Shown piece after piece: positions 2,643 to 53,035 of a stretch of DNA of 64,000 nucleotides. This stretch comes from a virus (Duplodnaviria > Heunggongvirae > Uroviricota > Caudoviricetes): IMG/VR virus record IMGVR_UViG_3300014208_000038, one strand, 5' to 3'. A program made the translations under genes and the position numbers. How positions within the stretch are numbered: position 1 is the first letter of the stretch; the number at the start of each line of letters is the position of its first letter. Under the pieces are notes generated by a model. That model ran no database searches, was not told where the DNA came from, and worked only from the letters and a program-made list of their open reading frames with translations.

Positions 2643-3137
2643 ATGGAAAATAGATTAGAAAAAGAGATAGCTTTTTCTAGATTAGAAAAAGCAATTGATT
2701 TTGCTGTTCAAGCACATAGGGGTCAAACAGATAAAGTAGGTTTGCCTTATATTTTACATCCACTAGCAGTAATGTTTTATGGAAAATGTGAATCCGAAAG
2801 AATAGTTGGAGTTCTTCATGATGTAGTTGAAGATACTCCATATGGAATAAACGATCTTAATGAGATGGTGAGTCTGACTTCTGAAGAGGAAATAGCTTTA
2901 ATAGCTCTTACTCATCTTAAAAATGAACCATATATAGATTATATAAAAAGAATTGCTAATTCAAATCGATTAGCTATTGAAGTAAAATTAAATGATTTGT
3001 TTCATAATATGAGCGAAGAAAGAATGATGGGATTAGATGAGCAAACCCAAGTTAGATTGAAAAAGAAATATGATATAGCTTGGAGTATGCTTTACTCCCC
3101 AGGATGGCCATTCATTCTTTCTACAATTCAGCCATAA
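2643..3137 (+). CDS. HD-domain phosphohydrolase, RelA/SpoT-hydrolase-like (small alarmone hydrolase family)
   Basis: YILHPLAV...LHDVVEDT matches the SpoT/Mesh1 HD hydrolase signature; 164 aa single domain. Confidence 0.7.
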   Translation: MENRLEKEIAFSRLEKAIDFAVQAHRGQTDKVGLPYILHPLAVMFYGKCESERIVGVLHDVVEDTPYGINDLNEMVSLTSEEEIALIALTHLKNEPYIDYIKRIANSNRLAIEVKLNDLFHNMSEERMMGLDEQTQVRLKKKYDIAWSMLYSPGWPFILSTIQP

Positions 3138-3171
3138 TCCTTAAATACATTTACCACCACTAGTACATATT

Positions 3172-3489
3172 ATGTTAGACTCCAAAATTAGACCTCTGAA
3201 ATCTGGGGATAAAATTGTTTTAGAATATAATGGTTCAAAAAGAAGAATTAAGAAGATAGATAGGATTACTCCAAAAGGACAGATTGTCGTAGACGCAATA
3301 AGATTTTCTCCCAATGGGAAGGAAATGACCTCAAATTTTCCACACTATTCTTTGGATTATGTTACCTCTCAAGATATAGAGGACTTCAAAAGGAGAACTA
3401 TGGTTAAAAAGTGCCAGGGAACAAAATTAGAGGATTTAAACTTGGATCAATTAAATAGAATATATAAAATTATGCAGGAAGGTGTGTAA
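3172..3489 (+). CDS. hypothetical protein
   Basis: 105-aa ORF. Confidence 0.4.
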   Translation: MLDSKIRPLKSGDKIVLEYNGSKRRIKKIDRITPKGQIVVDAIRFSPNGKEMTSNFPHYSLDYVTSQDIEDFKRRTMVKKCQGTKLEDLNLDQLNRIYKIMQEGV

Positions 3490-3642
3490 AATGACAGGAT
3501 GGTGTCCAATAGCAAAAGTATATAATTCTGGATGTAATAATTGTAATCTGTATAGTTCTTACAACCATGATTGTAAATTCATTGTAGCTTTTAAAGAGGC
3601 ATTAGCAAAAGGGCAAATTAATTTTGTTAAGGAGTAAAAAAT

Positions 3643-3849
3643 ATGGATAGAATATATATTCAAAGTGATTGGGATTCAGAAGAATTTACAAAACTATTAA
3701 ACGCAAACAATATTCCGAGAATAGGGGAGAGAATAACTACAAAAGATTTAGAGGGGCAGAGATTTATTTACAAAGTTATAAATATAGAACATTCCCTAGA
3801 TCTTGAAAATAAAGAAAGAACAATTCATATAAATGTGAGTAGGCTATGA
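3643..3849 (+). CDS. hypothetical protein
   Basis: 68-aa ORF with SD ggagtaaaaaatATG. Confidence 0.4.
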   Translation: MDRIYIQSDWDSEEFTKLLNANNIPRIGERITTKDLEGQRFIYKVINIEHSLDLENKERTIHINVSRL

Positions 3850-4019
3850 AAAAATTGGAGGTATAAAACTATGATTAATTATCCTTATGTTGCGTTTTGT
3901 TTGTGGATGTTAAATCAAGAAATTAACAATTTTGTAAATAATTATTTAGATATAATTACGAATATGTCTTATTTACATTATGTTATTTATATTTAAAAAT
4001 TTTTGAGGAGGAAATTTCT

Positions 4020-4181
4020 ATGATAATTTCTATAATAGAACTATTCCAAATTTTCTTTTTACTTCTTAGTTTTTATTTTTATTTAATAAATCTTATAGAA
4101 ATAAGTTTATTTTGTTTCTTCATAATGATTACATTTATATCTTTAAAGTTTCTACTTTCCGTAGAAAAGGTTAAATACTAA
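4020..4181 (+). CDS. small hydrophobic protein
   Basis: 53-aa ORF with strong SD gaggaggaaatttctATG; hydrophobic; ends in the TTAAATACTAA motif. Confidence 0.3.
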   Translation: MIISIIELFQIFFLLLSFYFYLINLIEISLFCFFIMITFISLKFLLSVEKVKY

Positions 4182-4199
4182 TAGATACTAGTATGATCT

Positions 4200-4892
4200 A
4201 TGACAACGAATGAAGTTCAAGGAAAAATAGTTCTAGAAAGAACACATACGTATTTTGTGCCTTATGACCTTTGGTATAAATCTACCCACGTAGAGGATAT
4301 TACAGAATCTTGGCTTAAGGAACAAAAAACGCTTGCAGAAGATTGTGAAGTTAGAAATAGGGAGATAGAATCTCAGATTTTAAAGAGAGTAGGAGTTATT
4401 AAATCTGAAATTAAAGAAATTTATGGAGAAAATTCCAAGATTTTTAAATATATAAAAAATGCTCTCGGCACGCAATTTAATCATAAACCAATGCTATTAG
4501 AAGTTCTTAAGAGAGAAGAAGAAAGATTTAAGAAAAATCAAAAAAAGATTCTTGATATTCAAAAGAAAGAATTTCAAGAAGAGTATAATCTTAAACTTAC
4601 ACAGGAAGCAATTATTTTCCTAGAAAAGAATGGAAAACATATTGGTATAGATTTTTCAATAGAAAAAGCTATCGGAGAAGCAAATAGTCTAGCTTTTGAC
4701 ATTTTGGTTGCTGAAAAGATTAAAGAAAATAAAGAAAAAGGAACTTTATTTTCTTTTGGAGGAGAGGATAATTGTGAAGGTTGTGGTGGATGGGACGGTA
4801 GTTCAAGAAGATGTGAATGCGGTAATCGTAGAGTGAGTTGGGAACACGGTGGAGATTTTAGAGATATGTATATTTATGGGGAGGCGTATTAA
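4200..4892 (+). CDS. hypothetical protein with Cys-rich C-terminus
   Basis: 230 aa; C-terminal CEGCGGW...CECGN cluster; ATG 23 nt after the TTAAATAC box (leaderless-like). Confidence 0.45.
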   Translation: MTTNEVQGKIVLERTHTYFVPYDLWYKSTHVEDITESWLKEQKTLAEDCEVRNREIESQILKRVGVIKSEIKEIYGENSKIFKYIKNALGTQFNHKPMLLEVLKREEERFKKNQKKILDIQKKEFQEEYNLKLTQEAIIFLEKNGKHIGIDFSIEKAIGEANSLAFDILVAEKIKENKEKGTLFSFGGEDNCEGCGGWDGSSRRCECGNRRVSWEHGGDFRDMYIYGEAY

Positions 4893-4893
4893 G

Positions 4894-5343
4894 ATGTTTA
4901 AAAAGGTTATTCAATCTCCAGAAGAACTTTACAAATTATATAGTGTTGACGAAAGAATCCGAAGAGGATTCTACAAAGCAAAACCTCTTCCAGATAATAT
5001 TTTTGATATTCAAAGAAAAACGGTGGAAAAGCTTAATAAGCAAGCAGAATTCCTCCTACATGGAGCAGAGGAACTTGGCATCAATATTAGCCAGACTAAT
5101 TTTATGGATAGAGTTCATGAAAATCTCGATGTTTATGGTAACATAAGAAATCTTCTTACTAAACATGGAAAAGAACAATTAGATCTTCAAAGGAAATTCA
5201 AAAAAGAGCTGGAGGAGGAATTTGCAACCGTAAATAATCCAAAAAAAGATGTTTTGTTTTCAAAAGCTTACGAACAAGGACATGCAAATGGAATGGAAGA
5301 AGTCTATAATGTGTATGCCAATTTAGTGGGGTTAATTAGATGA
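4894..5343 (+). CDS. hypothetical protein
   Basis: ATG at 4894 is 1 nt after the upstream TAA; the track ORF start at 4849 is probably an N-terminal over-extension. Confidence 0.45.
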   Translation: MFKKVIQSPEELYKLYSVDERIRRGFYKAKPLPDNIFDIQRKTVEKLNKQAEFLLHGAEELGINISQTNFMDRVHENLDVYGNIRNLLTKHGKEQLDLQRKFKKELEEEFATVNNPKKDVLFSKAYEQGHANGMEEVYNVYANLVGLIR

Positions 5344-5612
5344 AGAAATTTTCTCCTAAAACTCTGAGTAAAATTTGTGAGAATTGTATTCATTGTTCTG
5401 TTTATAGCCATAGTAAAAACTTAGGTGTTTGTAATATTAAAAAAGAAAGAGATTATCAAGAAGATAAATTAAGGTTTGATAAAAATGAATATCATCATCA
5501 TCCTGAAAAACTACCAAGTGGAGATCCCTGGCCATTTATTTATATGATGAGTAGAAATTGTTTTGTGGATTTAGATGATTCTTGTGATGAGGAGGAAAAA
5601 GAAATATGCTAA
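5340..5612 (+). CDS. Cys/His-rich hypothetical protein
   Basis: 90 aa; CENCIHCS...C.N; ATGA overlap with upstream. Confidence 0.4.
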   Translation: MKKFSPKTLSKICENCIHCSVYSHSKNLGVCNIKKERDYQEDKLRFDKNEYHHHPEKLPSGDPWPFIYMMSRNCFVDLDDSCDEEEKEIC

Positions 5613-6046
5613 AAGATAAACTAAAAAATTTATATGATATTTTAGAAATAAAATATCAAAATTTTAGATATCTTGACCTACCAGAATTTTATATGGACCA
5701 CATTCTGTTCTATTGGTTACATTATCTTTGCGGGCAAAAATGCGGTAATTGTCGAAATTGGACCTATACGGGTCGGTTACAATCTGATGGAATAGAAAGA
5801 GGAGATTGTTTTTTGTGGAAAGAAACTTTCTTGAGTTATCACGGACATTGTTTTTGTTGGAATCAAGATTTAGATGAAGATGAGAGAGGATATACTCATT
5901 GTGAAGATGGATGTGAAATGCTATGTGAAACTCCTAATGGAAAGCAAATTACTATGATTAGTAAAAATGGTAGATGGATGTATTTACACGATGGAGAGCC
6001 AACTTGGTATTCTAAATATGTAAAAAGGGGTGATTTAAATGAGTAG
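5606..6046 (+). CDS. Cys/His-rich hypothetical protein
   Basis: 146 aa; CGQKCGNC and other Cys/His clusters; overlapping start/stop. Confidence 0.4.
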   Translation: MLKDKLKNLYDILEIKYQNFRYLDLPEFYMDHILFYWLHYLCGQKCGNCRNWTYTGRLQSDGIERGDCFLWKETFLSYHGHCFCWNQDLDEDERGYTHCEDGCEMLCETPNGKQITMISKNGRWMYLHDGEPTWYSKYVKRGDLNE

Positions 6047-6686
6047 TAAGAATATAGCTCTAGAAGATCAATTAGCAGCAACTATTCATGCTTATACTTC
6101 GGGTCAAAGAAGATATATAGATGAATTTATTCAACAATATAAGATTGCCGCTGATCTACTTCAATTAGGTATTTACCCGGATGCAAAAGAGATTACTGAA
6201 AGCTATGGGGCTTTCAATGCTGTTAGAAAGTATTTAAAACAATATGATATGAATGACCCTGGAGTAACTTTGGTATCTGTGGGTGATGGCAGAAGTCCTA
6301 GAACAGCCGCTTTATTTGCCTTCAAAACTAAATGGAATTGTATTAGCATTGATCCTGGATTGGATGTTTCTAAGACAGATATGTGGGAATCCTCAATAAA
6401 GAGATTAACTTGTATTCCAAAAAAAGTAGAAGATATTTTGGATTATGGACCAATGTACTTTAAAAAAGTAGTTATAGTTGCAGTACATAGTCATGCTGAT
6501 ATGGGAGAAACATTAAAAACTATAATTGGTAATCCTTTAAGGAGCCTTGTAGCAATTCCTTGTTGTTTTCCTTGGGGTAGCCCGACTAAAAATCTGGATG
6601 GAAAAAGTTTTGCTCCAAGTACAGAATATAATGATAGTGGAATTTGGAGTCCGAAAAATAGAGTAAAAGTTTGGAAAAATATTTAG
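6039..6686 (+). CDS. hypothetical protein (weak Rossmann/methyltransferase-like G-x-G stretch)
   Basis: 215 aa; LVSVGDGRSPRTAALFA weakly resembles SAM-MTase motif I; not conclusive. Confidence 0.4.
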   Translation: MSSKNIALEDQLAATIHAYTSGQRRYIDEFIQQYKIAADLLQLGIYPDAKEITESYGAFNAVRKYLKQYDMNDPGVTLVSVGDGRSPRTAALFAFKTKWNCISIDPGLDVSKTDMWESSIKRLTCIPKKVEDILDYGPMYFKKVVIVAVHSHADMGETLKTIIGNPLRSLVAIPCCFPWGSPTKNLDGKSFAPSTEYNDSGIWSPKNRVKVWKNI

Positions 6687-6698
6687 GAGGAATTCGTA

Positions 6699-7070
6699 AT
6701 GAAGAAATCTTTAATTGAAATGTGCAAGTTATTAAAAGAGAAAGCCACACACGGAGAATGGGGGCCTGGCGATCTAGAAAAGAACTGTATCGCAGAAGAT
6801 GGTGGGAAAGGAAAAGTCGTGCTTCGCTACACCAACGGGGGTATAATACCATCACGAGAGAACATTAATCTGATATGTGACCTACGAAATACTGTTCCGA
6901 AGTTGCTTGACGTTTTGGATTTTCAACTAGGGGATGCTAAGCGATTGGCGGTGCTACTTAGGTTGCAAGTTATCAATGATGTATGCACGCAAGAGGAAAT
7001 TGATATGCTAGACAGATTACATACGATGTGTTGCAAGATGGAGGCGAAAAGCAATGAGTACACAAAATGA
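6699..7070 (+). CDS. hypothetical protein (inside GC-rich island)
   Basis: 123 aa; SD taggaggaattcgtaATG; local GC about 45-50% vs about 30% background. Confidence 0.4.
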   Translation: MKKSLIEMCKLLKEKATHGEWGPGDLEKNCIAEDGGKGKVVLRYTNGGIIPSRENINLICDLRNTVPKLLDVLDFQLGDAKRLAVLLRLQVINDVCTQEEIDMLDRLHTMCCKMEAKSNEYTK

Positions 7071-7299
7071 TCTGTACGATACGGAACAGGAACTGGAAGC
7101 AGCCATTCTACGAATAGATACCCAGGATAAGCAGATAGCCGCTCTGAAAACAACAATGATCAAAACACAAGCGGAATTGGATTTTTCAACCGGATCACAT
7201 GGATGCCCTTACATTGGTGATGAAGCAAGAAGGCTAAAAGCGGCTCGAAATACGCTCAAGTCCAAGCTGCCTATGATTGATTGGGAGGACATGAAATGA
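7054..7299 (+). CDS. coiled-coil hypothetical protein
   Basis: 81 aa; C-terminus LPMIDWEDMK is encoded by a 45-bp direct repeat. Confidence 0.4.
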   Translation: MSTQNDLYDTEQELEAAILRIDTQDKQIAALKTTMIKTQAELDFSTGSHGCPYIGDEARRLKAARNTLKSKLPMIDWEDMK

Positions 7300-7625
7300 A
7301 TGAATTCTGGATAGGCAACACCCGTGAAAACGCGATCAGAGCGCGAGATAATTATCATGCAGAAATCATGCGATTGGAGAAGGCGCGTGCTGAAAGTGAA
7401 AATTCCTGGATAGAGGAAATCGCAGAGCTGCATAAGCAGATTTCCTCCTTGAAAACTGCCCTTATTCGAGAAACTGCCCGAAGTACATATTACGAAAATG
7501 GATTGGGAAAGGGTGTATGTACTTGGTTCAATCTGGAAGGATTAGCCAGAATATCCAAAGAAGCGGAGGCCAAGGGCAAATTGGCTCGCGATCTACCTAT
7601 GATTAGTTGGGAGGATATGAAATGA
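7296..7625 (+). CDS. coiled-coil hypothetical protein (starts MNEFWIG; ends LPMISWEDMK)
   Basis: ATG at 7296 overlaps upstream TGA (ATGA); the track start at 7281 is TTG; the same repeat forms both its start and its end. Confidence 0.4.
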   Translation: MNEFWIGNTRENAIRARDNYHAEIMRLEKARAESENSWIEEIAELHKQISSLKTALIRETARSTYYENGLGKGVCTWFNLEGLARISKEAEAKGKLARDLPMISWEDMK

Positions 7626-7729
7626 ATGAATTCTGGATAGGATTCATGACGGGGGCAATAATATCAGTGGCTATAATATACATAGCCATTAATTTAAATA
7701 GGAGAGGATGTCATGAGTGATGATCTCAT
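7622..7729 (+). CDS. small TM protein starting MNEFWIG (third use of the repeat-encoded start)
   Basis: 35-aa hydrophobic ORF; ATGA overlap with upstream. Confidence 0.25.
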
Positions 7730-8045
7730 AGAGGATGCCATCAGTTGTCTAAGAGGCGAAGGATGGGACAAGGAAGCAGACGCGGTCGTTGGTTTGGTAG
7801 CCGAGGTTAAACGCCTCCGAAAAGAGAACGATTGCCTGCGAAACGGTACATGTGTAGAAAGTGAGAAAATCAGCCAAGCAGATAGCTATCTGGAAGAGTT
7901 GGAAAATGCTTTCTTGGATGCTAAAAAAGGCGAATTATATTTCAGGGAATATTCCAAACGGGGCGATATAACCCTACCAGATGCTTATGACCGGGCAAAA
8001 AAAGAGGCGCGAGATGCCTTAGACAAGATTCGTGTAAGTAGGTAA
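7713..8045 (+). CDS. hypothetical protein (GC-rich copy; N-terminus MSDDLIEDAISCL)
   Basis: 110 aa; the N-terminus has an AT-rich paralog at 8181. Confidence 0.4.
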   Translation: MSDDLIEDAISCLRGEGWDKEADAVVGLVAEVKRLRKENDCLRNGTCVESEKISQADSYLEELENAFLDAKKGELYFREYSKRGDITLPDAYDRAKKEARDALDKIRVSR

Positions 8046-8180
8046 CAATTGGATGATATGGCGGAATTTTTGGTGGAAGATAAATGATGAGTGAATATTC
8101 TGAGAAAATATGCTATGTATGGGACGCCCATCGATTGGTGCTTCTGCATTTTTCGCGGGGTTTTTATTGGGAGTACTTGT

Positions 8181-8534
8181 ATGTCGATGAGTGATGATCT
8201 TATAAAGAAAATAGAGACATTGTGTGATACTAGCTATAAAGGTGGGCAATCCAAGAATGCACAGAATCAAGTATATGGAATTAGATATTTAGAATTATGT
8301 AATTTACTTCCTAAATTACTGACTAAAATCAAATGCTTTCAAGAACAAAAGGATGCATGGTTAAAAACTCTAGAAAAATTAGGAAGTTTATCTATTCAGC
8401 AGCATGAAAATTTTAATAATTTAGCAGATTTTGCATTAAAAATAATTGACGAAGCTGAAGAACAGATTCTTGCTCAAGATCTAGAAATAAAAAAACTTAA
8501 ATTGGAATTAGCTAAATATAAAGGAAAAGAATAA
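8181..8534 (+). CDS. hypothetical protein (AT-rich paralog; MSMSDDLIKKIETLC)
   Basis: internal ATG at 8181 preferred over the track start at 8091; N-terminus parallels 7713 ORF. Confidence 0.4.
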   Translation: MSMSDDLIKKIETLCDTSYKGGQSKNAQNQVYGIRYLELCNLLPKLLTKIKCFQEQKDAWLKTLEKLGSLSIQQHENFNNLADFALKIIDEAEEQILAQDLEIKKLKLELAKYKGKE

Positions 8535-8631
8535 TTTATACCTAGATAATCATTTTGAGTATTTTGTAGAATGAGCAAAATCTTTATATATCAATATATA
8601 CCTATATTGCAATTGTGAGGTGTAATAAGAA

Positions 8632-8862
8632 ATGAAGCTTAGAACCGTGATACAGGCAATTCATAGTGTTAAGGAAGATATATCGAATATGGATTTGGGT
8701 TCTGCAAAAAAGCAACTAGACCAATTAGTAAAATTATTTGAAACAGAAGGGGTAGAAGTAACCCAAAATGTTAAACCAGAATATCCTCTTTATGGTGATT
8801 GTGGAGGTATTCTTACTGAAAATTGGGAGTATAATGATGAAAAATATCTAGATCAGGAGTGA
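8632..8862 (+). CDS. hypothetical protein
   Basis: 76-aa ORF. Confidence 0.4.
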   Translation: MKLRTVIQAIHSVKEDISNMDLGSAKKQLDQLVKLFETEGVEVTQNVKPEYPLYGDCGGILTENWEYNDEKYLDQE

Positions 8863-8868
8863 TTCTTA

Positions 8869-9123
8869 ATGGAAACTTCTAAAGTTTATGATTTAGCAGG
8901 AGATTTTGCAGATAAAGTAGATTATAGAACAAGACTCCTCCGACCAGAAACTTGGTTTGAATATTTTATTAATAAAGCAGTTAATCCAGAATATATTGAT
9001 TTTCTAGTATTCTGTGAGACAACAGAACGGTATTTATCTATACAAAAATTGATGGATATAGAAAAGGCTTTTATAATTGGTGTGGAAATAGGAATGTTAG
9101 AGTTCGATAAGAAGGAGGTTTAA
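8869..9123 (+). CDS. hypothetical protein
   Basis: 84-aa ORF. Confidence 0.4.
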   Translation: METSKVYDLAGDFADKVDYRTRLLRPETWFEYFINKAVNPEYIDFLVFCETTERYLSIQKLMDIEKAFIIGVEIGMLEFDKKEV

Positions 9124-9126
9124 AAA

Positions 9127-9336
9127 ATGTCGTCCAATAATGCAATTCTAATTAAGAAAGTGGGTCCAAAAATTGAAGTTAGAGATGTTTGTGTAGATAC
9201 TTATCCCGACTATCCAGGATCTCTAATTTGTGTTATAGAATATTCTCCTAATGCTCTTCAGACAGCAATCCGAATTGCTCAAAAATATATGAGGGAGAAT
9301 GTAGTAGAATATGGTATCACATTTGAGGGGATTTAA
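9127..9336 (+). CDS. hypothetical protein
   Basis: 69-aa ORF; SD aaggaggtttaaaaaATG. Confidence 0.4.
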   Translation: MSSNNAILIKKVGPKIEVRDVCVDTYPDYPGSLICVIEYSPNALQTAIRIAQKYMRENVVEYGITFEGI

Positions 9337-9344
9337 GAAAAATC

Positions 9345-9431
9345 CTTAAATAAAATATTTAAGGGAAACCCTTAAATAAAATATTTAAGGGAAACCCTTA
9401 AATAAAATATTTAAGGGAAACCCTTAAATAC
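9345..9431. repeat. perfect tandem repeat: 3 full + 1 partial copies of the 26-bp unit CCTTAAATAAAATATTTAAGGGAAAC; each unit contains a 9/9-bp palindrome (CCTTAAATA...TATTTAAGG)
   Basis: read directly; intergenic, upstream of the Ubl/E1 operon. Confidence 0.9.
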
Positions 9432-9515
9432 TAATATGTGCTTAGTATTTAATACTGCGATACGAAAATGTTTGTGTCGCTTAAGAATAAAAAATAAAGA
9501 GAGGACTGATAAAAA

Positions 9516-9767
9516 ATGGTAAAGGAAATAACAACTGGAATGGTACTGGAAGATGTTAAACTGCCTGAGAACAGAGAAGAAGGTTCTTGGATTGTAATGG
9601 ATGCAAAATTAGAACAATCCGTTACATTTGACGAGAAACCTACTTGGGATGAACTCCAAGATGTAAAAGAAGGTATATTTGGATATTCCAAAGCCAAGAT
9701 GGCTGTTAACGAAGAGTTAAACTTAATTGTCTTAACTCCAGTAGATGTTTCCGGTTTTTCTTTTTAG
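9516..9767 (+). CDS. small protein, candidate ubiquitin-like modifier precursor
   Basis: 83 aa immediately upstream of the E1/E2/JAB genes; ends ...VDVSG-FSF (a Gly followed by a 3-aa tail that could be trimmed); no Ubl fold is demonstrable from sequence. Confidence 0.3.
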   Translation: MVKEITTGMVLEDVKLPENREEGSWIVMDAKLEQSVTFDEKPTWDELQDVKEGIFGYSKAKMAVNEELNLIVLTPVDVSGFSF

Positions 9768-9830
9768 AAAAACCTTAACGGGTTTTTTCTTTTTAGAAAT
9801 TTTTTATAATTTTTTTCTAAAAAGAAAATC
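9753..9830. repeat. two direct copies of GGTTTTTCTTTTTAGAAA plus one inverted copy (TTTCTAAAAAGAAAA) between the Ubl candidate and the E1 gene
   Basis: read directly; the first copy encodes the last codons and stop of the 9516 ORF. Confidence 0.8.
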
Positions 9831-9877
9831 TTTTTAAGAAAACTTAAATATTTTTTAAATATAAAAATAGAGGAGGA

Positions 9878-10441
9878 ATGATTTTCACGAAAAATATTGC
9901 TATTATTGGCTCAGGTGGATTAGGAGCAAACCTTACAATGCTTTTGTTGGATCAAGGATACAATGTATTTTTGATAGATGGAGATACAGCAGATGAGAAG
10001 TTTTTTAAGAGATTTTCCACATTTACCAACTCTTTTGTTCTTAACTCAGGAAGAGCAAAGGTAGAAGTAGTAAAATCTGTAGCTCGTGGAAGAGGTTATG
10101 AAGATAAAATTAGAACTAGATCAGTAATGGTTGGACCGGAATTTGATTACAACTTATTTAAGCCTTATGAGCTGGTAATCATTGCGGTGGATACAATTAC
10201 TGGAAGGCAAACTATTGAGCTTAATCTTAAAAAGAATGGATTGACTAATTTTATCCACGTAGGGCTCAATCTGAATAGCATTAGTATTTTTAAGACGGCT
10301 GATGGATTACTAGGGGCAGATCCGCTACCGGATGCTCAAACTTCATATGATAGAGTCCCGGATGCAAGAACATATCTTACAGCTTGTTTAGAAGTATTAG
10401 ATATAATTGATCCTGTAACCATTCAGGTATATAAGGAGTAA
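9878..10441 (+). CDS. ThiF/MoeB-family E1-like adenylyltransferase (short, 187 aa)
   Basis: Rossmann IAIIGSGGLGANLTMLL...DGDTADEKFFKRF, parallel to E1 G-x-G-x-x-G ... D-x-D-x-x-E-x-x-N/R; SD agaggaggaATG. Confidence 0.65.
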   Translation: MIFTKNIAIIGSGGLGANLTMLLLDQGYNVFLIDGDTADEKFFKRFSTFTNSFVLNSGRAKVEVVKSVARGRGYEDKIRTRSVMVGPEFDYNLFKPYELVIIAVDTITGRQTIELNLKKNGLTNFIHVGLNLNSISIFKTADGLLGADPLPDAQTSYDRVPDARTYLTACLEVLDIIDPVTIQVYKE

Positions 10442-10447
10442 ATAAAT

Positions 10448-11536
10448 ATGTCTCAAACCTCTTATTTTTTTAAAGTTTCTCTCATTAATAATGGAACAAA
10501 GATCTTACTTTCTTATCATATAAAAGAATATATAACGAGAGAATCTCAGGAATCTATTGCTAGAAGTATTAATCAAAAATTTCCAGATGGACTTGCAGAC
10601 CTCAGAAGATTGATCAGTTTTGATATTTTATCTTCGCTTCGATCTTATAAAAGATATACTTATAATTTTTACATTCCTCCAACAAATGTAGCAGAATCTA
10701 ACTCAAAAGTTATTCCTGTATTAAAATATTTAGAACCAATTTTAGCAGGATTAGACCTAATTGATCAAAAAGAGGCCAGCACAAAAAAGATATGGACAGA
10801 AATTGTAAGGGAGAAAAATGTTCATCCTCTTCTTGTGACAGGAGAAAAAGTTTATAAGTTGACTTTAGTGGAAGATGTTAGTGGCCGTCCTATTAGACCA
10901 ACAGAAGCCTTCCAGGAAGCAATTAATGAAGAAGTAGAAAGCATAAAAATTCAATATGAGCAAATGTTATCCCAGGGAATAGAAAGCTTTAAGAAAGAAA
11001 ATTTTACTTCTTATGTTTTGAGAATAGAAGATTTTCAACAAGGTTTTGTAAGTTTTCTTGATTCACAAAATAATCCTTGTCTTGCTAAAAAAGTTATGTT
11101 TTGTCCTCTTCATATTATGTTTAGCTCTCAAGATATTAGAAAAATTAAACAGGAATATAGAGAAAAAATGAAACAAGAAGTTTTTATTGTATATAATTCT
11201 AATAGTAGAATATCTGTATATGAATCAAATGGGGTAACTCCGGCAAAGCTTCCTCATAATTGGAATGGAGGAGCGATGTGTACGGGAAGCTATCACATTG
11301 AATCTAATGTGAGTGATGTTGTTAAGGCAAAAGAAATAGTGAATCATATTGAGGAAATGCTTCAAATGATTAATATGACATCTTTGGCAGATGGCTATAT
11401 TTTATATGATGGAGAGCTAAAATTTATGAGAACTATTTCTACAGACTTACGAGATATTTGTGAATCTAATACGCCGGTACAATCAACTTGGAATGAAAAT
11501 AGGGAAACAGTAATTTATGATGGGCAAATTCTTTAA
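10448..11536 (+). CDS. protein with C-terminal E2-like (UBC-fold-like) catalytic motif
   Basis: LPHNWNGGAMCTG resembles the E2 HPN-x4-G-x-I-C motif (His-Asn then Cys about 8 aa later); sits between the E1 and JAB genes. Confidence 0.45.
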   Translation: MSQTSYFFKVSLINNGTKILLSYHIKEYITRESQESIARSINQKFPDGLADLRRLISFDILSSLRSYKRYTYNFYIPPTNVAESNSKVIPVLKYLEPILAGLDLIDQKEASTKKIWTEIVREKNVHPLLVTGEKVYKLTLVEDVSGRPIRPTEAFQEAINEEVESIKIQYEQMLSQGIESFKKENFTSYVLRIEDFQQGFVSFLDSQNNPCLAKKVMFCPLHIMFSSQDIRKIKQEYREKMKQEVFIVYNSNSRISVYESNGVTPAKLPHNWNGGAMCTGSYHIESNVSDVVKAKEIVNHIEEMLQMINMTSLADGYILYDGELKFMRTISTDLRDICESNTPVQSTWNENRETVIYDGQIL

Positions 11537-11542
11537 AAAGGA

Positions 11543-12241
11543 GTGAGTTTAAAAATGTTAGATGAAGTAAAGCATAGTCAATGTCCCATATGCACCGATT
11601 TAGATACTTCAAAATGTGAGGTTAAAATGGGTGCCGTGGTTTGGGGTTATCTTCAAGCCCTAATGTATAAAATGGGAAGTCAAGAATTTGCTGCGTATCT
11701 TTTGGGGTCCATAAGTGAAGATGGACAAAAATTTATTGTTGATGAGTATTATATTCCAACACAGGGAGTAAATTCAGTAAATGTAGAGATAGGCGAAGAA
11801 ATTTTTACAATACCAAAAGAAATTAGGGAAAGAATAATTGGTCATCTACATTCTCATCATATAATGGGTTTCTCTCCAAGCGGAACAGACAAGGAACATC
11901 TTAATTATCCTTTACATATCATAATTGCACATCAAGGATATAAAACCACAATTAGAAAGAGGGTTGGATGTGGTAAATGGCTTGCTATTTCTGATGTTCC
12001 GATTACGTTCTATTCGGATTATGTAGAGCTGGGTGAGACTGAAAAAATTGAGATCGTACAACCAAAATATGTTGATTTATATCAAAGTAGATTAGATGAG
12101 GGTGGAAATTATTTTGATCCTGTGGAAGAAAAAGATAATTTTGAAGAGTACCAAAAATATTTAGAAAATGAAAATAATTCTTGGTTTCCCCCATCATCGG
12201 AAGTGGTAAGCCGAGAAATTCAAGATGGAATGGAGATTTAA
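11543..12241 (+). CDS. JAB/MPN (JAMM) metalloprotease, deubiquitinase-like
   Basis: JAMM motif HLHSHHIMGFSPSGTD (H-x-H-x7-S-x2-D); upstream Glu present. Confidence 0.75.
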   Translation: MSLKMLDEVKHSQCPICTDLDTSKCEVKMGAVVWGYLQALMYKMGSQEFAAYLLGSISEDGQKFIVDEYYIPTQGVNSVNVEIGEEIFTIPKEIRERIIGHLHSHHIMGFSPSGTDKEHLNYPLHIIIAHQGYKTTIRKRVGCGKWLAISDVPITFYSDYVELGETEKIEIVQPKYVDLYQSRLDEGGNYFDPVEEKDNFEEYQKYLENENNSWFPPSSEVVSREIQDGMEI

Positions 12242-12243
12242 AT

Positions 12244-12441
12244 ATGAGTGGGTTTGACCGTTTATGTATTACAGTAAGAGAAGATCAAAGAGAAGAAATG
12301 AAAAAATATCCTGAAAATTATTCAGGGTGGGTTCAAATATTTTTAGACATGCTATTGAAAAATTTAGCAATAGCAAAAGAAAAAACAGAAAGGGAATTTT
12401 TAGAAAAAATTGATGATAAAAGAGATGATAATGCACAATGA
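12244..12441 (+). CDS. hypothetical protein
   Basis: ATG at 12244 directly after the JAB stop; the track start at 12181 overlaps the JAB gene. Confidence 0.35.
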   Translation: MSGFDRLCITVREDQREEMKKYPENYSGWVQIFLDMLLKNLAIAKEKTEREFLEKIDDKRDDNAQ

Positions 12442-19943: not shown

Positions 19944-20273
19944 ATGGTTAAGAAAAATGGAAAGAAGAGTTTTTTGCTTCTAGGTGAGGCAGATGCTATT
20001 GTAGCAAAGTTTGAGAATAAGTATCCACGAGGAGCAGCTCTTAAAGCCGCTAACAAGGGTTTTACAACTATTAGGCTCCTTGAGAGAGGGTCTAAAAATA
20101 AAGATAAGGGCGGTTGGAAATTGCATATCTTTACTGGTGAGAGAACCAAAGTTCCAAAGCCAGTAGGTGCTCCTGAGTGGATGGCTGCCGAGGTTTATAA
20201 GCCCACTGTAATTAAGGTAGGCATTGAAAGGAAGGTAGTTAATCTATCTTCCGAAGGTGACGATACAGAATAG
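19944..20273 (+). CDS. MC1-family archaeal chromatin (nucleoid) protein
   Basis: PRGAALKAANKG...IRLLERGSK...KLHIFTG...VPKPVGAPEWM...KP.VIKVGIERK parallels Methanosarcina MC1 (PRQAALKAANRG...IRLRERGTKKVHVF...); SD ttggaggattataattATG. Confidence 0.75.
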   Translation: MVKKNGKKSFLLLGEADAIVAKFENKYPRGAALKAANKGFTTIRLLERGSKNKDKGGWKLHIFTGERTKVPKPVGAPEWMAAEVYKPTVIKVGIERKVVNLSSEGDDTE

Positions 20274-20408: not shown

Positions 20409-20831
20409 TTGGTAAATCCAATGAAATACAAGCTCGATAGGTCTGCACATTCAGTGTACTCACTTCACTATCACTTGGTGGTAGTCATCAAGTACCGTAG
20501 GAAAGCACTCTATGATGAAGCGATTCGCGAGAGGCTAAAGCAGATCATTTGGAGTTTGATGGATGAACTTGGAATAGAAATACTAGCACAGGAACCCGCC
20601 GAAGATCATCTCCATATACTGTTCACAGCGACACCTACAACCAACTTATCCAACGTCGTGAATGTAATCAAGGGCGTCACTGCCAGAAGACTCCGACAAG
20701 AGTTTCCGCAAACCAAGGAGTTCCTTTGGGGGGACTCATTTTGGTCAAATTCCTACTTCATTTCCAGTACAGGGCAGGTATCTCTCGATGTTCTGATGCA
20801 GTATGTAGAGTCTCAGATGGAGAAAGTATGA
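20409..20831 (+). CDS. tnpA: IS200-type Y1 (HuH) transposase TnpA
   Basis: HuH motif HYHLVVV and downstream catalytic Tyr region; about 140 aa. Confidence 0.9.
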   Translation: MVNPMKYKLDRSAHSVYSLHYHLVVVIKYRRKALYDEAIRERLKQIIWSLMDELGIEILAQEPAEDHLHILFTATPTTNLSNVVNVIKGVTARRLRQEFPQTKEFLWGDSFWSNSYFISSTGQVSLDVLMQYVESQMEKV

Positions 20832-22015
20832 TTATAAGCTACAAGTATCCTATCTTCCCGAATAAGATCGCCCAATGGAAGTTAGCGGAGAATTTGGATG
20901 CTTGTAGATGGCTCTATAATCGGCTTCTCCAAGACCTGAATGAAGCAAAAGAAAAAGGTATCAAGCTCAAGACCTATGATTCTCAGAACATGATTCCTTC
21001 TCTGAAGCTCGTAAATCCAAAGCTGGATCTTGTCTACTCTAAAGTTCTTCAGATGGTGAATTACACTCTTTGGTCTAACATCAAAGGACTCTCGGCATCA
21101 AAGAAGAACGGTCGGAAGATCGGTCATATCCGCTTCAAAGGGTATGGTTGGTATAATACCCTGAATTACAACCAATCCGGGTTCAAGATCGATCGAGATC
21201 ATGGCCTATTGCATCTCTCCAAGATCGGAGAAATGCGGATCAAGATCTATCGAAAGATCGAAGGTTGCATCAAAGCCGTCATAATCAAGAGAGAAGGCGA
21301 GAGATGGTTCGCCATAGTCCAGGCCAATCAGGAACCACAGCCGTTACCAAGAACCGAGGAAGCGGTAGGTCTGGATGTCGGTTTGACTTCCTTCGTGGTT
21401 GACTCCGAAGGCAATAATATAGAAAATCCAAGATGTGCCGAGCAATCTGCTGATAAACTGGCAAAGCTACAAAGAAAGCTAGCCAGAGCCAAGATGGGAT
21501 CAAATAATCGCAAAGCAATCAAGGATAAGATCGCCAAGCTGCATAAAAGAATCAATTGCCAACGAGATGATTTCCTGCATAAGTTATCTCGGACCTATAT
21601 TAATAACTTTGATATCATTTGTGTTGAAGATCTTGATGTCAAAGGCCTGAAAGAGAAAGGCCATAACACTGGCATGCATCGCAGCATTCATGATGCATCC
21701 TGGTCTAAGTTCATATTCATGCTTTCGTACAAGGCTCAAAGTGCTGGTCGAAAGTTGATAAAAGTAGATCCCAGGAACACCACTCAAAGGTGTTCTGCTT
21801 GTGGAAGCATCGTAAAGAAAGATCTGTCGGTACGAGTACATGAGTGCCCTTATTGCGGATTCTCGTGTGATCGAGACTATAATGCTTCCAGGAATATACT
21901 CATCACAGGGATGGAACAGCCCGTAGCGCCCAAAGAACCAAAACCACTACATCACATATCAGTGATGCAAGTTTTGGCAATGACGTGGGAAGCCGTGCCC
22001 TTCAGGACGCGGTAG
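20828..22015 (+). CDS. tnpB: TnpB (OrfB) RNA-guided-nuclease-family protein
   Basis: RuvC-like motifs (GLDVGL, ICVEDLDVKGL), C-terminal zinc finger CSACG...CPYCG...RDYNAS.NI; ATG 20828 overlaps tnpA stop; the track start 20726 is an over-extension. Confidence 0.9.
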   Translation: MIISYKYPIFPNKIAQWKLAENLDACRWLYNRLLQDLNEAKEKGIKLKTYDSQNMIPSLKLVNPKLDLVYSKVLQMVNYTLWSNIKGLSASKKNGRKIGHIRFKGYGWYNTLNYNQSGFKIDRDHGLLHLSKIGEMRIKIYRKIEGCIKAVIIKREGERWFAIVQANQEPQPLPRTEEAVGLDVGLTSFVVDSEGNNIENPRCAEQSADKLAKLQRKLARAKMGSNNRKAIKDKIAKLHKRINCQRDDFLHKLSRTYINNFDIICVEDLDVKGLKEKGHNTGMHRSIHDASWSKFIFMLSYKAQSAGRKLIKVDPRNTTQRCSACGSIVKKDLSVRVHECPYCGFSCDRDYNASRNILITGMEQPVAPKEPKPLHHISVMQVLAMTWEAVPFRTR

Positions 22016-22822: not shown

Positions 22823-23293
22823 ATGAAAAAGTTTCTTATTAAAGATTCAAAACTTTTGTCTCAAATTAAAAATATTATTAATATAAAATGGAAAGCAAAT
22901 AAGAAATATGTTCTTGCGGATTTAGTAATCTCTGCTCCAAATATTTATACTCCAGATTTAAGAACAGAATATGCATTTACGCCAGATGGAGATTTAATTG
23001 GAGATCCTAAAGCAGCTCAAATCTTGATTACTCAAAAAGGAATTAAACCTGAATTAAGAAGGCCCATAGATCAGATTTGTAGTATTGGATGGAGTTCTAA
23101 GACTCAAATGTACTATGGTTGGACATCTGGTAAAATAAGAGGTTTTAAAGTCAATGGAAAACCATTGGAATCTGGAGACATATTAACTGATATTTTAGAG
23201 GCAGGTTACGTCCCTCAATCAAAAGAAGATTGCAAACAGATGGCTATTTTGTTTGTGGAATTAGCTTCAAAAGAAGGTAAAATGCATGGTTAA
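22823..23293 (+). CDS. hypothetical protein
   Basis: SD aggagggaaataaaATG. Confidence 0.4.
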   Translation: MKKFLIKDSKLLSQIKNIINIKWKANKKYVLADLVISAPNIYTPDLRTEYAFTPDGDLIGDPKAAQILITQKGIKPELRRPIDQICSIGWSSKTQMYYGWTSGKIRGFKVNGKPLESGDILTDILEAGYVPQSKEDCKQMAILFVELASKEGKMHG

Positions 23294-30130: not shown

Positions 30131-30913
30131 TTATTCTCCTATAAAAGAATCCATATTTTTTATTATTTCTTTTGGATTGTTATATAAGTTCTTCCATCTT
30201 ATTCTTATAAGTTCCCATCCCAAACTAATTAATAATTTATCTTTCTTTTTATCACTTTCTATTTGTTTTTTAGTAAGATGTTGATCTCCATCAATTTCTA
30301 TTGCTTTCATTTTTTCTTTCCAAGCAAAATCTATAGAATAACGACCAACAGAATATTCTCTAATATAGTTTTTATCTTTAAAATTATTTTTTATTGCCTT
30401 TATTACAAATTGTTCTGGATAAGAAGGTTCATTATTCCAACGACAAGATCCTATATTATGAGCCCTGCCTTCTGCATGAGCTTTTTTCATAGATTTTGAA
30501 ATTTTTATTTTTTGTTTACCACTTATAATAGGATGTGGATTTTTTAAATAATATTCTTTTTTTATTTTACTAAGGCTTAGGCATAAATTTTTTGTTTTTT
30601 CTTCTCCATAAAGTTCGTTATATGTTTTATCTTTATTGAAATTTGGTTTTCCTAATTTTATATATTTTATTTTTTTAGAATGTTCTTGACCAGAATAAAT
30701 ATGTACGCGCCATATATGAGTAGAAATTCCTTTTAAAGTAAATTCTTTTGAACAAATAGGGCAAAGATAAAATCCATTTTCTTGTATGCAATTTTTATTT
30801 ATTTCAAAATTTTTTATTTTTTTAATATTAGAATGAGATAAAATATGTTTTTTAATATTAGAATTACTTATTAATCTTTTACACTCTGGGCATTCTGTTT
30901 TATTTCTAATCAT
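30131..30913 (-). CDS. 2x C2H2 zinc finger + DUF559 (Vsr-like endonuclease fold) protein; putative site-specific/homing-type endonuclease
   Basis: CPECK...H...H and CPICS...H...H fingers; C-terminal YSVGRYSIDFAW...IEIDGDQH...LGWELIRIRW is the DUF559 signature. Confidence 0.6.
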   Translation of the reverse strand: MIRNKTECPECKRLISNSNIKKHILSHSNIKKIKNFEINKNCIQENGFYLCPICSKEFTLKGISTHIWRVHIYSGQEHSKKIKYIKLGKPNFNKDKTYNELYGEEKTKNLCLSLSKIKKEYYLKNPHPIISGKQKIKISKSMKKAHAEGRAHNIGSCRWNNEPSYPEQFVIKAIKNNFKDKNYIREYSVGRYSIDFAWKEKMKAIEIDGDQHLTKKQIESDKKKDKLLISLGWELIRIRWKNLYNNPKEIIKNMDSFIGE

Positions 30914-30932
30914 AAAAACTCTCTGAATTTAA

Positions 30933-31004
30933 TCTGTACTCCCGAAGTTGAATCGGGTTAATCTCGGTCTACAGCCGAGTGCATAACCGTTCTGCCAAGT
31001 ACAG
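30933..31004 (-). tRNA. tRNA-Tyr (anticodon GUA), 72 nt, C1:G72 pair
   Basis: manual fold: acceptor CTGTACT/AGTACAG, anticodon arm CTCGG-CTGTAGA-CCGAG, T-arm CCCGA-TTCAACT-TCGGG; C1:G72 is the archaeal/eukaryal Tyr identity pair; no encoded CCA. Confidence 0.7.
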
Positions 31005-31151
31005 TTTTTTGCCACCACAGATATTTCGATATACTAACAGCGTACTCGTCTTTTCTAGACTTATGGGTGTTGACTCCTTTTCCTGAAGCCGCAAGGGTAC
31101 TGATTTATATCGAGGTACTACTACCCTTTATTCCCTTCTATGGTGACAAAA

Positions 31152-31257
31152 TGGACAGTGAGGAACTCGAATCCCCGGCCTCCTGCTATTTTGTTTGACC
31201 TTTCCCCATTATGTCAAAAATGCAAAGCAGGCTATCTTCCAACTGATATAACTGCCC
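31152..31257 (-). tRNA. tRNA-Ala (anticodon UGC) with a 33-nt intron at position 37/38
   Basis: acceptor GGGCAGT/ACTGTCC with G3:U70; D-arm TATC-AGTTGGAA-GATA; anticodon stem CCTGC/GCAGG, loop TT-TGC-A | intron TTTTTGAC...GTCAAACAAAAT | A; T-arm GGGGA-TTCGAGT-TCCTC; followed by TTTT. Confidence 0.75.
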
Positions 31258-31295
31258 AAGAGCAGTGATTATGTGCCCAATATCCCTATCACCAA

Positions 31296-31369
31296 TGGGC
31301 TTGTTCGGATTTGAACCGAAGGCCAAGTGGTTCCAGACCACCTATGCTACCAGGCTACACTACAAACCC
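31296..31369 (-). tRNA. tRNA-Pro-like (anticodon UGG), unusual C33
   Basis: acceptor GGGTTTG/CAAGCCC, D-loop TAGCCTGGTAGC (archaeal/eukaryal style), anticodon arm GGTGG-TCTGGAA-CCACT, T-arm TTCGG-TTCAAAT-CCGAA; TTTATAG TATA-like box about 28 nt upstream. Confidence 0.6.
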
Positions 31370-31458
31370 ATATCTTAGTATATGGTTCTTCTATAAATAG
31401 TTTTCTCTTATGATTTCGGAGCGTTAACTATTTATCTTAGGCAACATAAGAATATATT
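31370..31458. promoter_or_regulatory. divergent promoter region: TATA-like boxes for the minus-strand tRNA cluster and the + strand ligase gene
   Basis: minus-strand AAAACTATTTATAGAAG about 28 nt upstream of tRNA-Pro 5' end; + strand ACTATTTATCTTAGG about 30 nt before ATG 31459 (no SD, leaderless-like). Confidence 0.45.
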
Positions 31459-32109
31459 ATGAAATACCCTCATACTCCATATTTTAGTTTTAGTCCAGCA
31501 GTAAGCGAGAAAGATAGAAACAGAAAGGATGTATATATTAATTTACAACATCTTCTTAATAAGCCTTTAGTATTTACTATTAAGATGGATGGTAGTAATT
31601 TAGGAATGACTAGAGAAAAAATATTTGCTAGGAATGGAATTGATGCCAGGCACAAATCGTTTGACTTAGCAAAGAGCCTTCATAACAGAATTAAGAAAGA
31701 AATTCCAGAAAATGAAATTTGGTATGGAGAGTGGTTGTATGCTAAACATTCTATTCATTATTCTGATCTAGAATCGTACTACCAATTATTTGCTATATAT
31801 TTTGTTGAAGAAGATTATTGGACTGGAGTTAATTGGATAAAGAATAGGGCAGAACTTCATGGACTGAAAACCGTGCCTTTGCTTACTAGAGGACCACAAT
31901 ACGGGGATGTTAAAACTTTGAAGCAGGTAATTCAACAGGAGGGAGACAGAGTAATTAAAATGGGTCAAGAAGGTATTGTGGTTAGAACCAAAGATGGGTT
32001 TTACGCAAAAGACTTAAATAAGTGTATAGCGAAATATGTTCGTGCAAATCATATTCAAACCGATGAGCATTGGAAAACACAGAAAATTGTGAAAAATTTA
32101 TTGAGGTGA
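31459..32109 (+). CDS. compact ATP-dependent polynucleotide ligase (KxDG nucleotidyltransferase), RNA/DNA ligase-like
   Basis: motif I TIKMDGSNLG (Lys-x-Asp-Gly), motif IV-like EWLYAKHS, motif V-like GIVVRTKDG...AKYVR; 216 aa. Confidence 0.6.
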   Translation: MKYPHTPYFSFSPAVSEKDRNRKDVYINLQHLLNKPLVFTIKMDGSNLGMTREKIFARNGIDARHKSFDLAKSLHNRIKKEIPENEIWYGEWLYAKHSIHYSDLESYYQLFAIYFVEEDYWTGVNWIKNRAELHGLKTVPLLTRGPQYGDVKTLKQVIQQEGDRVIKMGQEGIVVRTKDGFYAKDLNKCIAKYVRANHIQTDEHWKTQKIVKNLLR

Positions 32110-38591: not shown

Positions 38592-38957
38592 ATGGAATTT
38601 AAATATAAAATGGCAATAGTTATAAGAAAAGATTTAGAAATGTCTCCTGGAAAACTTGCAGGACAATGTGCTCATGCTGCCTGTGGATGTTTGAGGGCAC
38701 CCATAGGACCAGAAAAATCAAAATATATAGAGGAATGGTTTGAAGAAGGTCAAGTGAAAGTAATTTTGCAAGTAGAAAAACAAGCAGATTTACATATGTT
38801 AGCTTCTAAATGTTTATTAGAAGAAGTACCTTATTATTGTGTTAGAGACTTTGGACTTACAGAATTGGAACCTAATACGCTTACTTGTGTAGGAATTGGT
38901 CCAGATCTCAAAAAGAATGTAGATAAAATTACGGGAAATCTTAAACTATATAGGTGA
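38592..38957 (+). CDS. pth2: peptidyl-tRNA hydrolase, PTH2 (archaeal/eukaryotic type)
   Basis: MAIVIRKDLEMSPGKLAGQCAHAA matches the PTH2 signature (V.R.DL.M..GK.AAQ.AHA); about 120 aa; SD ggaggaatttaagatATG. Confidence 0.8.
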   Translation: MEFKYKMAIVIRKDLEMSPGKLAGQCAHAACGCLRAPIGPEKSKYIEEWFEEGQVKVILQVEKQADLHMLASKCLLEEVPYYCVRDFGLTELEPNTLTCVGIGPDLKKNVDKITGNLKLYR

Positions 38958-53009: not shown

Positions 53010-53035
53010 ATACAATTAAGGAGAATAGTAAGATT

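Follow-up and report, generated by a model that had tools for sequence, protein, structure and literature searches.

The 64,000-nt stretch analysed here (the window) comes from the virus record IMGVR_UViG_3300014208_000038. Four consecutive genes on its + strand look like the parts of a ubiquitin-like protein (Ubl) conjugation cascade: a candidate Ubl, an adenylating enzyme resembling ubiquitin-activating enzymes (E1), a protein resembling ubiquitin-conjugating enzymes (E2), and a JAMM/MPN (JAB) metalloprotease (Table 1). All four open reading frames (ORFs) are present as initially annotated, at 83, 187, 362 and 232 amino acids (aa), and a purine-run sequence resembling a Shine–Dalgarno (SD) site precedes each one. 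The tight spacing of the genes and these SD-like sites indicate that the four would be co-expressed. The 232-aa JAB ORF (11543–12241) had been drawn from a GTG codon at 11543. The ORF itself stands, and the proposed start does not: this GTG falls within the SD sequence GGAG, so the ATG 12 nt downstream, which gives 228 aa, is the most likely start codon. The gene call on the 79-kb source contig (JGI 3300037810 Ga0376277_0001889) is also 228 aa.

Table 1. Features of the putative Ubl conjugation locus and its immediate surroundings
Feature	Coordinates	Strand	Details
Putative Ubl modifier precursor gene	9516–9767	+	83 aa, ending ...PVDVSGFSF; SD-like AGAGGA upstream
Minimal E1-like adenylating enzyme gene	9878–10441	+	187 aa; ThiF/MoeB/E1 superfamily; SD-like GGAGG upstream
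E2-like conjugating enzyme gene	10448–11536	+	362 aa; contains LPHNWNGGAMCTG; AAGGAG upstream
JAMM/MPN (JAB) metalloprotease gene	11555–12241	+	228 aa from ATG at 11555; GGAG at 11541
Small gene directly 3' of the JAB gene	12244–12441	+	65 aa; conserved in some relatives
Tandem array	9331–9430	.	26-nt unit, 3.8 copies, each unit with the perfect palindrome TTTAAGGGAAACCCTTAAA; TRF score 179, 95% matches
T-rich intergenic stretch	9755–9828	+	Perfect 15-nt inverted repeat (9785–9799 / 9814–9828) and repeated TTTTTCTTTTT tracts; repeat families D10, I5 and I14

Relatives of the 362-aa protein are few. A word-indexed search of 5.8 billion proteins returned five of them, and 16 came from a profile search run exhaustively over 1.84 billion representative proteins. 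The order Ubl–E1–E2–JAB is kept in all eight informative loci (L001, L002/L003, L004, L007, L009, L010 and L011, of which L011 is partial and shows only the E1, E2-like and JAB genes). Proteins of the related loci are 20–60% identical to those of the window, falling to about 20–30% in the distant ones. Since both sequence and gene order are conserved, chance ORFs can be ruled out, and on this comparative evidence we regard the four genes as real. Searches for relatives gave no match among the INPHARED phages, in IMG/VR or in 185,579 GTDB species genomes. One hit, the 2414-aa P0022 with its eight repeated stretches, was dismissed as a low-complexity repeat artefact.

The 83-aa protein, with its SG-FSF ending, had been put forward as a candidate Ubl, a proposal that structure prediction bears out. 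The predicted model is a beta-grasp with beta-grasp structural neighbours, its core spanning approximately residues 25–78. Comparison supplies the strongest evidence. Common to 12 homologues are W25, G56-Y57 and P75-x-D77, and in all of them the fold ends in P-x-D-x-[SA]-[GA] followed by 0–8 unconserved residues. These tails read FSF, F, FKINK, ISV, Q, K, RGTVGSEE, SF, ADIWIDW, none, YI and Q, and they differ even at 75–86% identity (FSF, F, FKINK and ISV). A variable tail behind a conserved [SA]-[GA] end is the pattern that would be expected of a Ubl precursor trimmed to a reactive Gly or Ala. The predicted mature C-terminus in the window is Gly80 (PVDVSG), with FSF as the removable tail. The N-terminal 24 residues appear to be an optional extension, given that the shortest Ubl paralogue (62 aa, from L007) starts directly with the beta-grasp core. 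Searches against Pfam, PHROGs, PADLOC and NCBIfam gave no meaningful match, a PDB sequence search with the family profile gave none, and family-model searches found nothing ThiS- or MoaD-like in the sequence. A match to DUF7694 (E 0.0014) was rejected as chance because it occurred in only 1 of 11 homologues.

The second gene had been described as encoding a ThiF/E1-like adenylyltransferase, and the family searches agree. Pfam ThiF (PF00899) scored 41.3 bits against a cut-off of 28.1 (E 1.2e-10), and a profile of close homologues matched the adenylation domains of the SUMO E1 UBA2, MccB and the NEDD8 E1 UBA3 in the PDB. The GxGGxG, DxD...R, GRSK and Mg-Asp motifs align with those matches, including the motifs of UBA2. 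Across eight sequences at 30–60% identity, the invariant residues are G11, G13, G14, G16, N18, D34, D36, K41, R45, K61, D105, R110, H127, N131, S134, S136, S156, Y157, P161 and Y166. With its ATP- and Mg-site residues (the four glycines, D34, D36, R45, K61 and D105) unchanged throughout this set, the adenylation site looks intact.

What stands out about this E1 is its size. It consists of a single adenylation domain and has no N-terminal helices, CxxC zinc motif, separate Cys domain or ubiquitin-fold domain. The proteins begin only a few residues ahead of the first beta-strand; most are 184–195 aa long, and one L007 paralogue reaches 225 aa. ThiF and MoeB, at about 250 aa, are much longer. Like ThiF, MoeB and UBA5, the E1 is probably a homodimer. 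A Cys is present at position 169 or 170, two to three residues after Y166-L167, in 9 of 10 sequences and is missing in L009. The invariant pair S156-Y157 follows the adenylation core roughly where Tyr370 sits in Bub E1s, in which that catalytic Tyr is the sole invariant residue of the crossover loop (PMC11601596).

Against PADLOC the E1 matched only Cap2 "E1-E2" models, and these weakly (E 5.5e-4 or worse). Its best NCBIfam matches were ThiF models. Together with MccB among the best PDB matches, these would suit a reading in which no protein is conjugated and the first two genes encode either a sulfur-carrier pair (ThiS/MoaD with ThiF/MoeB) or a peptide-adenylation pair of the MccB type, serving cofactor synthesis, tRNA thiolation or the chemistry of peptide antibiotics; the abundance of tRNA-related enzymes in the genome (RtcB, Thg1 and PTH2) also speaks for it. 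We consider such a reading very improbable. Scores for ThiF, MoeB and UbaA are far under the family cut-offs (27.6 bits against 275, and 14.7 against 450 for the SAMPActivE1UbaA equivalog), and no rhodanese, cysteine desulfurase, thiazole synthase or molybdopterin synthase partner is encoded nearby. Moreover, the E1–Ubl pair never comes without an invariant JAB and an invariant Cys/His protein, and precursor tails that require proteolysis are typical of conjugation systems.

The 362-aa protein was modeled with AlphaFold2 from 18 sequences (pLDDT 79). The model comprises an N-terminal alpha/beta module (approximately residues 7–125); a disordered linker followed by a long helix (153–184); a beta-rich region (200–259) followed by a loop and a second long helix (291–304); and smaller elements with an extended tail ending G-Q-I-L. 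A UBC-like catalytic core is probable, on this model, at about residues 190–330. The only invariant columns in the 18 sequences are His270, Cys278 and Gly280, all inside the motif PHxxxGGxMCTG. E2 enzymes ranked top in two independent structure searches, with weak scores; Foldseek placed Ubc9 first at a non-significant E of 0.1. When the family was aligned by hhalign to UbcH5B, the single alignment obtained was likewise non-significant (probability 0.6%), and it set PH..C over HPN..C with Cys278 over the catalytic Cys85. Searches with the protein and its 17 relatives drew a blank in Pfam, PHROGs, PADLOC and NCBIfam, even when hits as weak as E 10 were allowed, and a PDB sequence search with the family profile found nothing. 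The initial annotation had called this protein E2-like on the strength of a His-Asn...Cys motif. Its His and Cys are indeed invariant and E2s are the top structural matches; the Asn of HPN is not conserved, and no E2 sequence model recognizes the family. On balance we think it quite likely that the protein is an E2.

A gene fusion also bears on this assignment. In P0023 (514 aa) an E1 domain is fused to residues 178–324 of the E2-like family, a Rosetta-stone arrangement, and a second fused paralogue (466 aa) from the same locus has the same architecture. Because the fusion includes just the core, residues ~190–330 appear to be the part that works with the E1. The N-terminal ~180 residues lie outside that core and are missing from the fusion, which marks them as an accessory module; they are likely to serve in target recognition.

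L007 itself carries three paralogous Ubl systems in tandem at 2946–9986 of a 47.8-kb contig. In the first, E1, E2-like protein and JAB are encoded by separate genes. The second combines an E1–E2 fusion (514 aa) with a JAB gene behind it; the third also has an E1–E2 fusion (466 aa), but no JAB gene was called downstream. Every system has its own small Ubl, of 81, 91 and 62 aa, and a NAMPT gene is found nearby.

Nearly all of the 18 E2-like proteins end in hydrophobic-x-x-G-x-hydrophobic-hydrophobic-COOH. The final four residues are GQIL in the window (11516–11536) and GTVF, GEVF, GVVF, GVIF, GVIA, GAII, GAVL, GEML, GEVM, GAVI, GAIL, GMVI, GMIL or GQMY elsewhere. Most JAB proteins have a looser Gly-containing tail: GMEI in the window (12221–12241), and GMIF, GVVF, GAVF, GMY, GMT or GME in others. 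Such E2-like and JAB tails occur in the window and in L001, L002, L004, L007, L009, L010 and L011; in L002 both proteins end in GVVF. A variable-length linker precedes the tail. The distance from the tail to the C-terminus is fixed, unlike in the freely varying Ubl tails, and a shared docking motif is therefore likelier than a cleaved propeptide. We propose that the G-x-hydrophobic-hydrophobic tail is probably a docking motif common to the two proteins.

The same tails could be taken to mean that the 362-aa protein is not an E2 at all. It might be a cargo or effector comparable to cGAS in type II CBASS, with G359 exposed by the JAB, adenylated by the E1 and conjugated, or else an unrelated Cys/His enzyme. 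The near-invariance of the Gly at position −4, its recurrence in most JAB tails and the weakness of the E2 structural scores all lean that way. We nevertheless find this improbable. The tail after the Gly has a fixed length and conserved hydrophobicity, which suits docking better and contrasts with the free variation of the Ubl tail in length and sequence. Nor is a dedicated beta-grasp protein ever missing, and it has a conserved Gly of its own. E2s remain the best structural matches, the invariant His...Cys lies at the E2 active-site position, and the fusion of the core to an E1 mirrors the known E2–E1 fusions Cap2 and BubBD.

The product of the fourth gene had been identified by its HxHx7Sx2D motif as a JAMM/MPN isopeptidase, and this identification holds. 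Pfam Prok-JAB (PF14464) was matched barely over threshold (25.4 bits against 25, E 1.4e-5), and the JAMM signature E48...H103-S-H105-x7-S113-x2-D116 is intact. Residues E48, H103, H105, S113 and D116 are invariant in close relatives, and the motif is also present in distant ones. A PDB sequence search with the JAB family profile gave no match. The enzyme is predicted both to trim the Ubl tail and to reverse conjugation.

The window has a GC content of ~30% and nearly all of its genes on one strand. It encodes RtcB, a PrimPol-primase, NrdD, an SNF2 helicase, radical-SAM proteins and two RNA ligases, along with PTH2, Thg1 and a dCTP deaminase. A homologue of the archaeal chromatin protein MC1 lies at 19944–20270 (Pfam E 3.3e-16); MC1 is not known outside euryarchaeal lineages, among them Methanosarcinales, Methanomicrobiales and Halobacteria. 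The related virus L002 encodes an MC1 that is 61% identical (tblastn). At 57444–62750 we found a 1768-aa fusion of UDG, PHP and a DnaE-type polymerase III alpha subunit, interrupted by a LAGLIDADG intein, whose best full-length match is Methanobacterium virus PhiF1. With MC1, PTH2 and Thg1 on the same contig as this PhiF1-like UDG–DnaE, the initial suggestion of an archaeal virus is upheld; the carrier would be a large virus whose host is probably a methane-producing archaeon. Searches of PrimPol and NrdD against phages by tblastn were uninformative on the host. Other hosts are possible for the distant relatives L007, L009 and L010, whose GC contents are ~45–46%; a Kyano_Gp96 domain is encoded in L010.

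Taken together, we judge it probable that the four genes form a self-contained, virus-encoded cascade for Ubl conjugation to proteins, with a role in the virus's own programme. In the mechanism we propose, the 83-aa beta-grasp protein would be made as a precursor, from which the JAB would remove the FSF tail and expose Gly80. The minimal E1, acting as a probable homodimer, would adenylate Gly80 with ATP. The Ubl would then move to Cys278 of the E2-like protein, either directly from the adenylate or by way of Cys170 or Ser156/Tyr157 of the E1. The E2-like protein would join the Ubl to target lysines without an E3, its N-terminal modules choosing the targets, and the JAB could also undo the modification.

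Several features weigh against this proposal. No E3, target or proteasome link is readable from the sequence. The Ubl ends in a single Gly or Ala and not in Gly-Gly. In the E1, the N-terminal helices that are the source of the Arg finger in MoeB-type enzymes are missing, and no Cys is invariant. No match to Pfam UQ_con or Prok-E2 was obtained for any of the 18 E2-like members, even at E up to 10.

In such a programme the cassette would tag viral proteins or those of the host, the latter for takeover or counter-defence and possibly via the archaeal proteasome. We favour a role of this kind as the most likely one because the cassette is syntenic and vertically conserved in a lineage of large viruses, where it is retained together with flanking viral genes among related members, and because the module was not found in the cellular genomes searched. 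The same genome also carries a homologue of the anti-Thoeris protein Tad6 and a tRNA-repair kit, which we count in favour of this role. A sporadic defence island is less likely.

The same biochemistry could nonetheless serve defence. A Bil-like immunity that tags structural proteins of competitors would exclude superinfection, and defence genes are common cargo of viruses. The prokaryotic Ubl, E1, E2 and JAB operons characterised to date, those of Bil and type II CBASS, all act in antiviral immunity, and the same has been proposed for Bub (PMC11601596). The three tandem systems of L007 amount to a diversification typical of arms-race genes. Despite these points we regard a defence role as unlikely: the Ubl, E2-like and JAB proteins match no PADLOC model, the module follows a viral lineage in conserved synteny and is not scattered, and it has no relative in the GTDB genomes, whereas defence systems are normally found in cellular genomes too.

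The initial annotation compared the locus to Bil, Bub and 6E-type systems. The gene complement is the same, as it had claimed; family membership did not hold up, since no PADLOC, Pfam or NCBIfam model places the system there. The likeness to Bil is one of design, not homology: a free-standing Ubl, an E2, a JAB peptidase and an E1 share one operon without an E3. In Bil these are BilA (Ubl), BilB (E2), BilC (JAB) and BilD (E1), with the E2 presumed to select targets and the JAB processing the Ubl precursor (PMC11601596). The differences are considerable. Bil E1s are large IAD-AAD-Cys proteins (PMC11601596), whereas the E1 here has 187 aa, one adenylation domain and no invariant Cys. The gene order is different. 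The E2-like protein, at 362 aa, has extra N-terminal modules and, as in classical E2s, a His upstream of the Cys. Bil belongs to bacterial defence islands and the present cassette to a virus of archaea, and no sequence model links the two.

Shared with Bub are an E1 that lacks an invariant Cys and has an invariant Tyr, and structural similarity to BubB. The E2s part company: that of Bub uses a catalytic Ser/His and oxyester chemistry, whereas Cys278 and His270 are invariant in all 18 E2-like sequences here. The Ubl and E2 are separate genes in our cassette, as are the JAB and E1, and no Pfam match to the DUF6527/BubE serine protease was found in the four genes, their neighbours or the 76 other ORFs of the window. 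Type II CBASS likewise brings together an E1-like, an E2-like and a JAB protein, and the fused E1–E2 of P0023 is Cap2-like in concept. The fusion runs E1 then E2, however, the reverse of Cap2; a dedicated beta-grasp Ubl takes the place of the cGAS C-terminus; no CD-NTase or effector is present, unlike in type II CBASS; and the JAB and E2-like proteins match neither the Cap3 nor the Cap2 models of PADLOC.

Among archaeal systems, SAMP/UbaA/HvJAMM1 and the Urm1-type systems share with the cassette their setting, a small Gly-terminated beta-grasp modifier, a ThiF-type E1 and a JAMM isopeptidase. Sampylation and Urm1-type systems are known to be tied to proteasomal degradation (PMC4895103, PMC4569737). 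SAMP is chromosomal and has no E2, whereas the cassette is viral and its E2-like protein obligatory. Classical UBC-fold E2s (UQ_con; Ubc9 and UBE2S) are the best structural neighbours of that protein. Its His lies ~8 residues before the Cys, compared with 10 in HPN...C, and a long helix follows ~13 residues after the Cys. It differs from them in having no detectable sequence homology, no conserved HPN Asn, six strands in the beta-region instead of the four of the UBC fold, ~180 extra N-terminal residues and the conserved C-terminal G-x-hydrophobic-hydrophobic tail. Viruses are already known to pair a Ubl with a JAB domain: in lambdoid and T1 phages, the Ubl TAPI, with its conserved C-terminal Gly, adjoins the JAB domain of TAPK (PMC1779556). 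There too a virus-encoded beta-grasp protein with a C-terminal Gly stands beside a JAB peptidase, but within a tail-assembly module and without E1 or E2; here the cascade is complete and sits among early or auxiliary genes. No sequence model of Bil, Bub, type II CBASS or SAMP reached its threshold, and as judged from these comparisons the system belongs to none of the four.

If the assignment is right, the cassette is unusually compact, with an E1 of 187 aa and no E3, and its Ubl and E2 families are undescribed in databases. It combines a Bub-like E1 without an invariant Cys with an E2 of classical appearance, bearing His and Cys. This makes it a tractable minimal model for the evolution of E1-to-E2 transfer, a possible source of orthogonal protein-ligation tools, and an archaeal and viral data point on the origin of the eukaryotic ubiquitin machinery. 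To our knowledge, the Ubl conjugation systems characterised so far in prokaryotes either serve cells as weapons against viruses (Bil, type II CBASS and, probably, Bub) or do archaeal housekeeping (SAMP and Urm1). In searching the literature we came across no account of such a cascade in viruses of archaea. A full Ubl–E1–E2–JAB cassette as a conserved part of a viral genome would reverse that picture, and it suggests that archaeal viruses, like eukaryotic ones, employ protein tagging for their own ends.

A bolder hypothesis, which we offer only tentatively, is that large viruses of methanogen-type archaea and some of their relatives possess a mechanistically distinct Ubl cascade that has escaped recognition until now. 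The smallest known E1, without a dedicated catalytic Cys, would pass the Ubl on through a Bub-like Ser-Tyr oxyester or by direct attack of the E2 on the adenylate. A classical His...Cys E2 with target-recognition domains of its own would receive it, the E2 and more loosely the JAB being recruited by the docking tail, and host defence or chromatin factors would be tagged for inactivation or proteasomal destruction. Such a cascade, if true, would be the archaeal-virus counterpart of the hijacking of ubiquitin by eukaryotic viruses.

The DNA around the genes was described at first as flanked by repeats. This is only partly correct: an array does precede the operon and an inverted repeat separates the Ubl and E1 genes, but the downstream side has nothing comparable and relatives lack the array. 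The array lies ~85 nt upstream of the Ubl gene, and within the window the TTTAAGGGAAACCCTTAAA motif occurs only there, with 0.12 matches expected by chance. We did not find such an array upstream of the operon in related loci and so rejected it as a part of the Ubl system; it is a candidate operator or regulatory array, specific to this lineage.

The T-rich stretch between the Ubl and E1 genes is a candidate partial terminator or attenuator, and in L002 a 20-nt hairpin occupies the matching position. Partial termination there would fit an excess of Ubl over the enzymes. The spacer between the two genes (9768–9877) is also a variable slot, holding a 52-aa Cys-rich ORF in L001 (1294–1452), an unrelated 49-aa ORF in L002 (9263–9412) and only T-rich sequence in the window. 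A 30-aa ORF at 9745–9837 was rejected as an intervening gene, as it overlaps the T-rich spacer and the ORFs of relatives at this position are mutually unrelated.

The 65-aa gene that follows the JAB gene overlaps the next one, a metallophosphatase gene, by ATGA. L002 (BLASTP E 3e-7) and L004 have a homologue at the matching place, and L001 has none. The protein matched nothing in Pfam or NCBIfam. In its pattern, an RLCITV strand and then two helices, it is similar to DNA-binding proteins of the ribbon-helix-helix type, which makes it a possible regulator of the operon, with the upstream array as its possible operator.

Elsewhere in the window, the Tad6 homologue, a type I Thoeris inhibitor (PF25188, E 1.4e-20), is encoded at 22823–23293. 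The RNA/tRNA repair kit (the RtcB ligase, two RNA ligases of which one has a PHA02142 OB-fold, PTH2 and Thg1) is spread over 1476–2636, 31459–32109, 38592–38957, 39859–40896 and 52988–53782 and may counter tRNA-cleaving defences of the host. A 186-nt tandem repeat (2.1 copies, 81% identity) covers small ORFs near the window start (564–954). The only sizeable block on the − strand (30131–31370) encodes a C2H2 zinc-finger protein with a REase_MTES_1575/DUF559 nuclease domain and also holds tRNA-Tyr and tRNA-Pro; the GC skew collapses locally there. An IS200/IS605-type element, with a Y1 transposase TnpA and a TnpB/Cas12f-like protein, lies at 20409–22015 in a 2-kb island whose GC content of 44%, against ~30% for the window, suggests a recent insertion.

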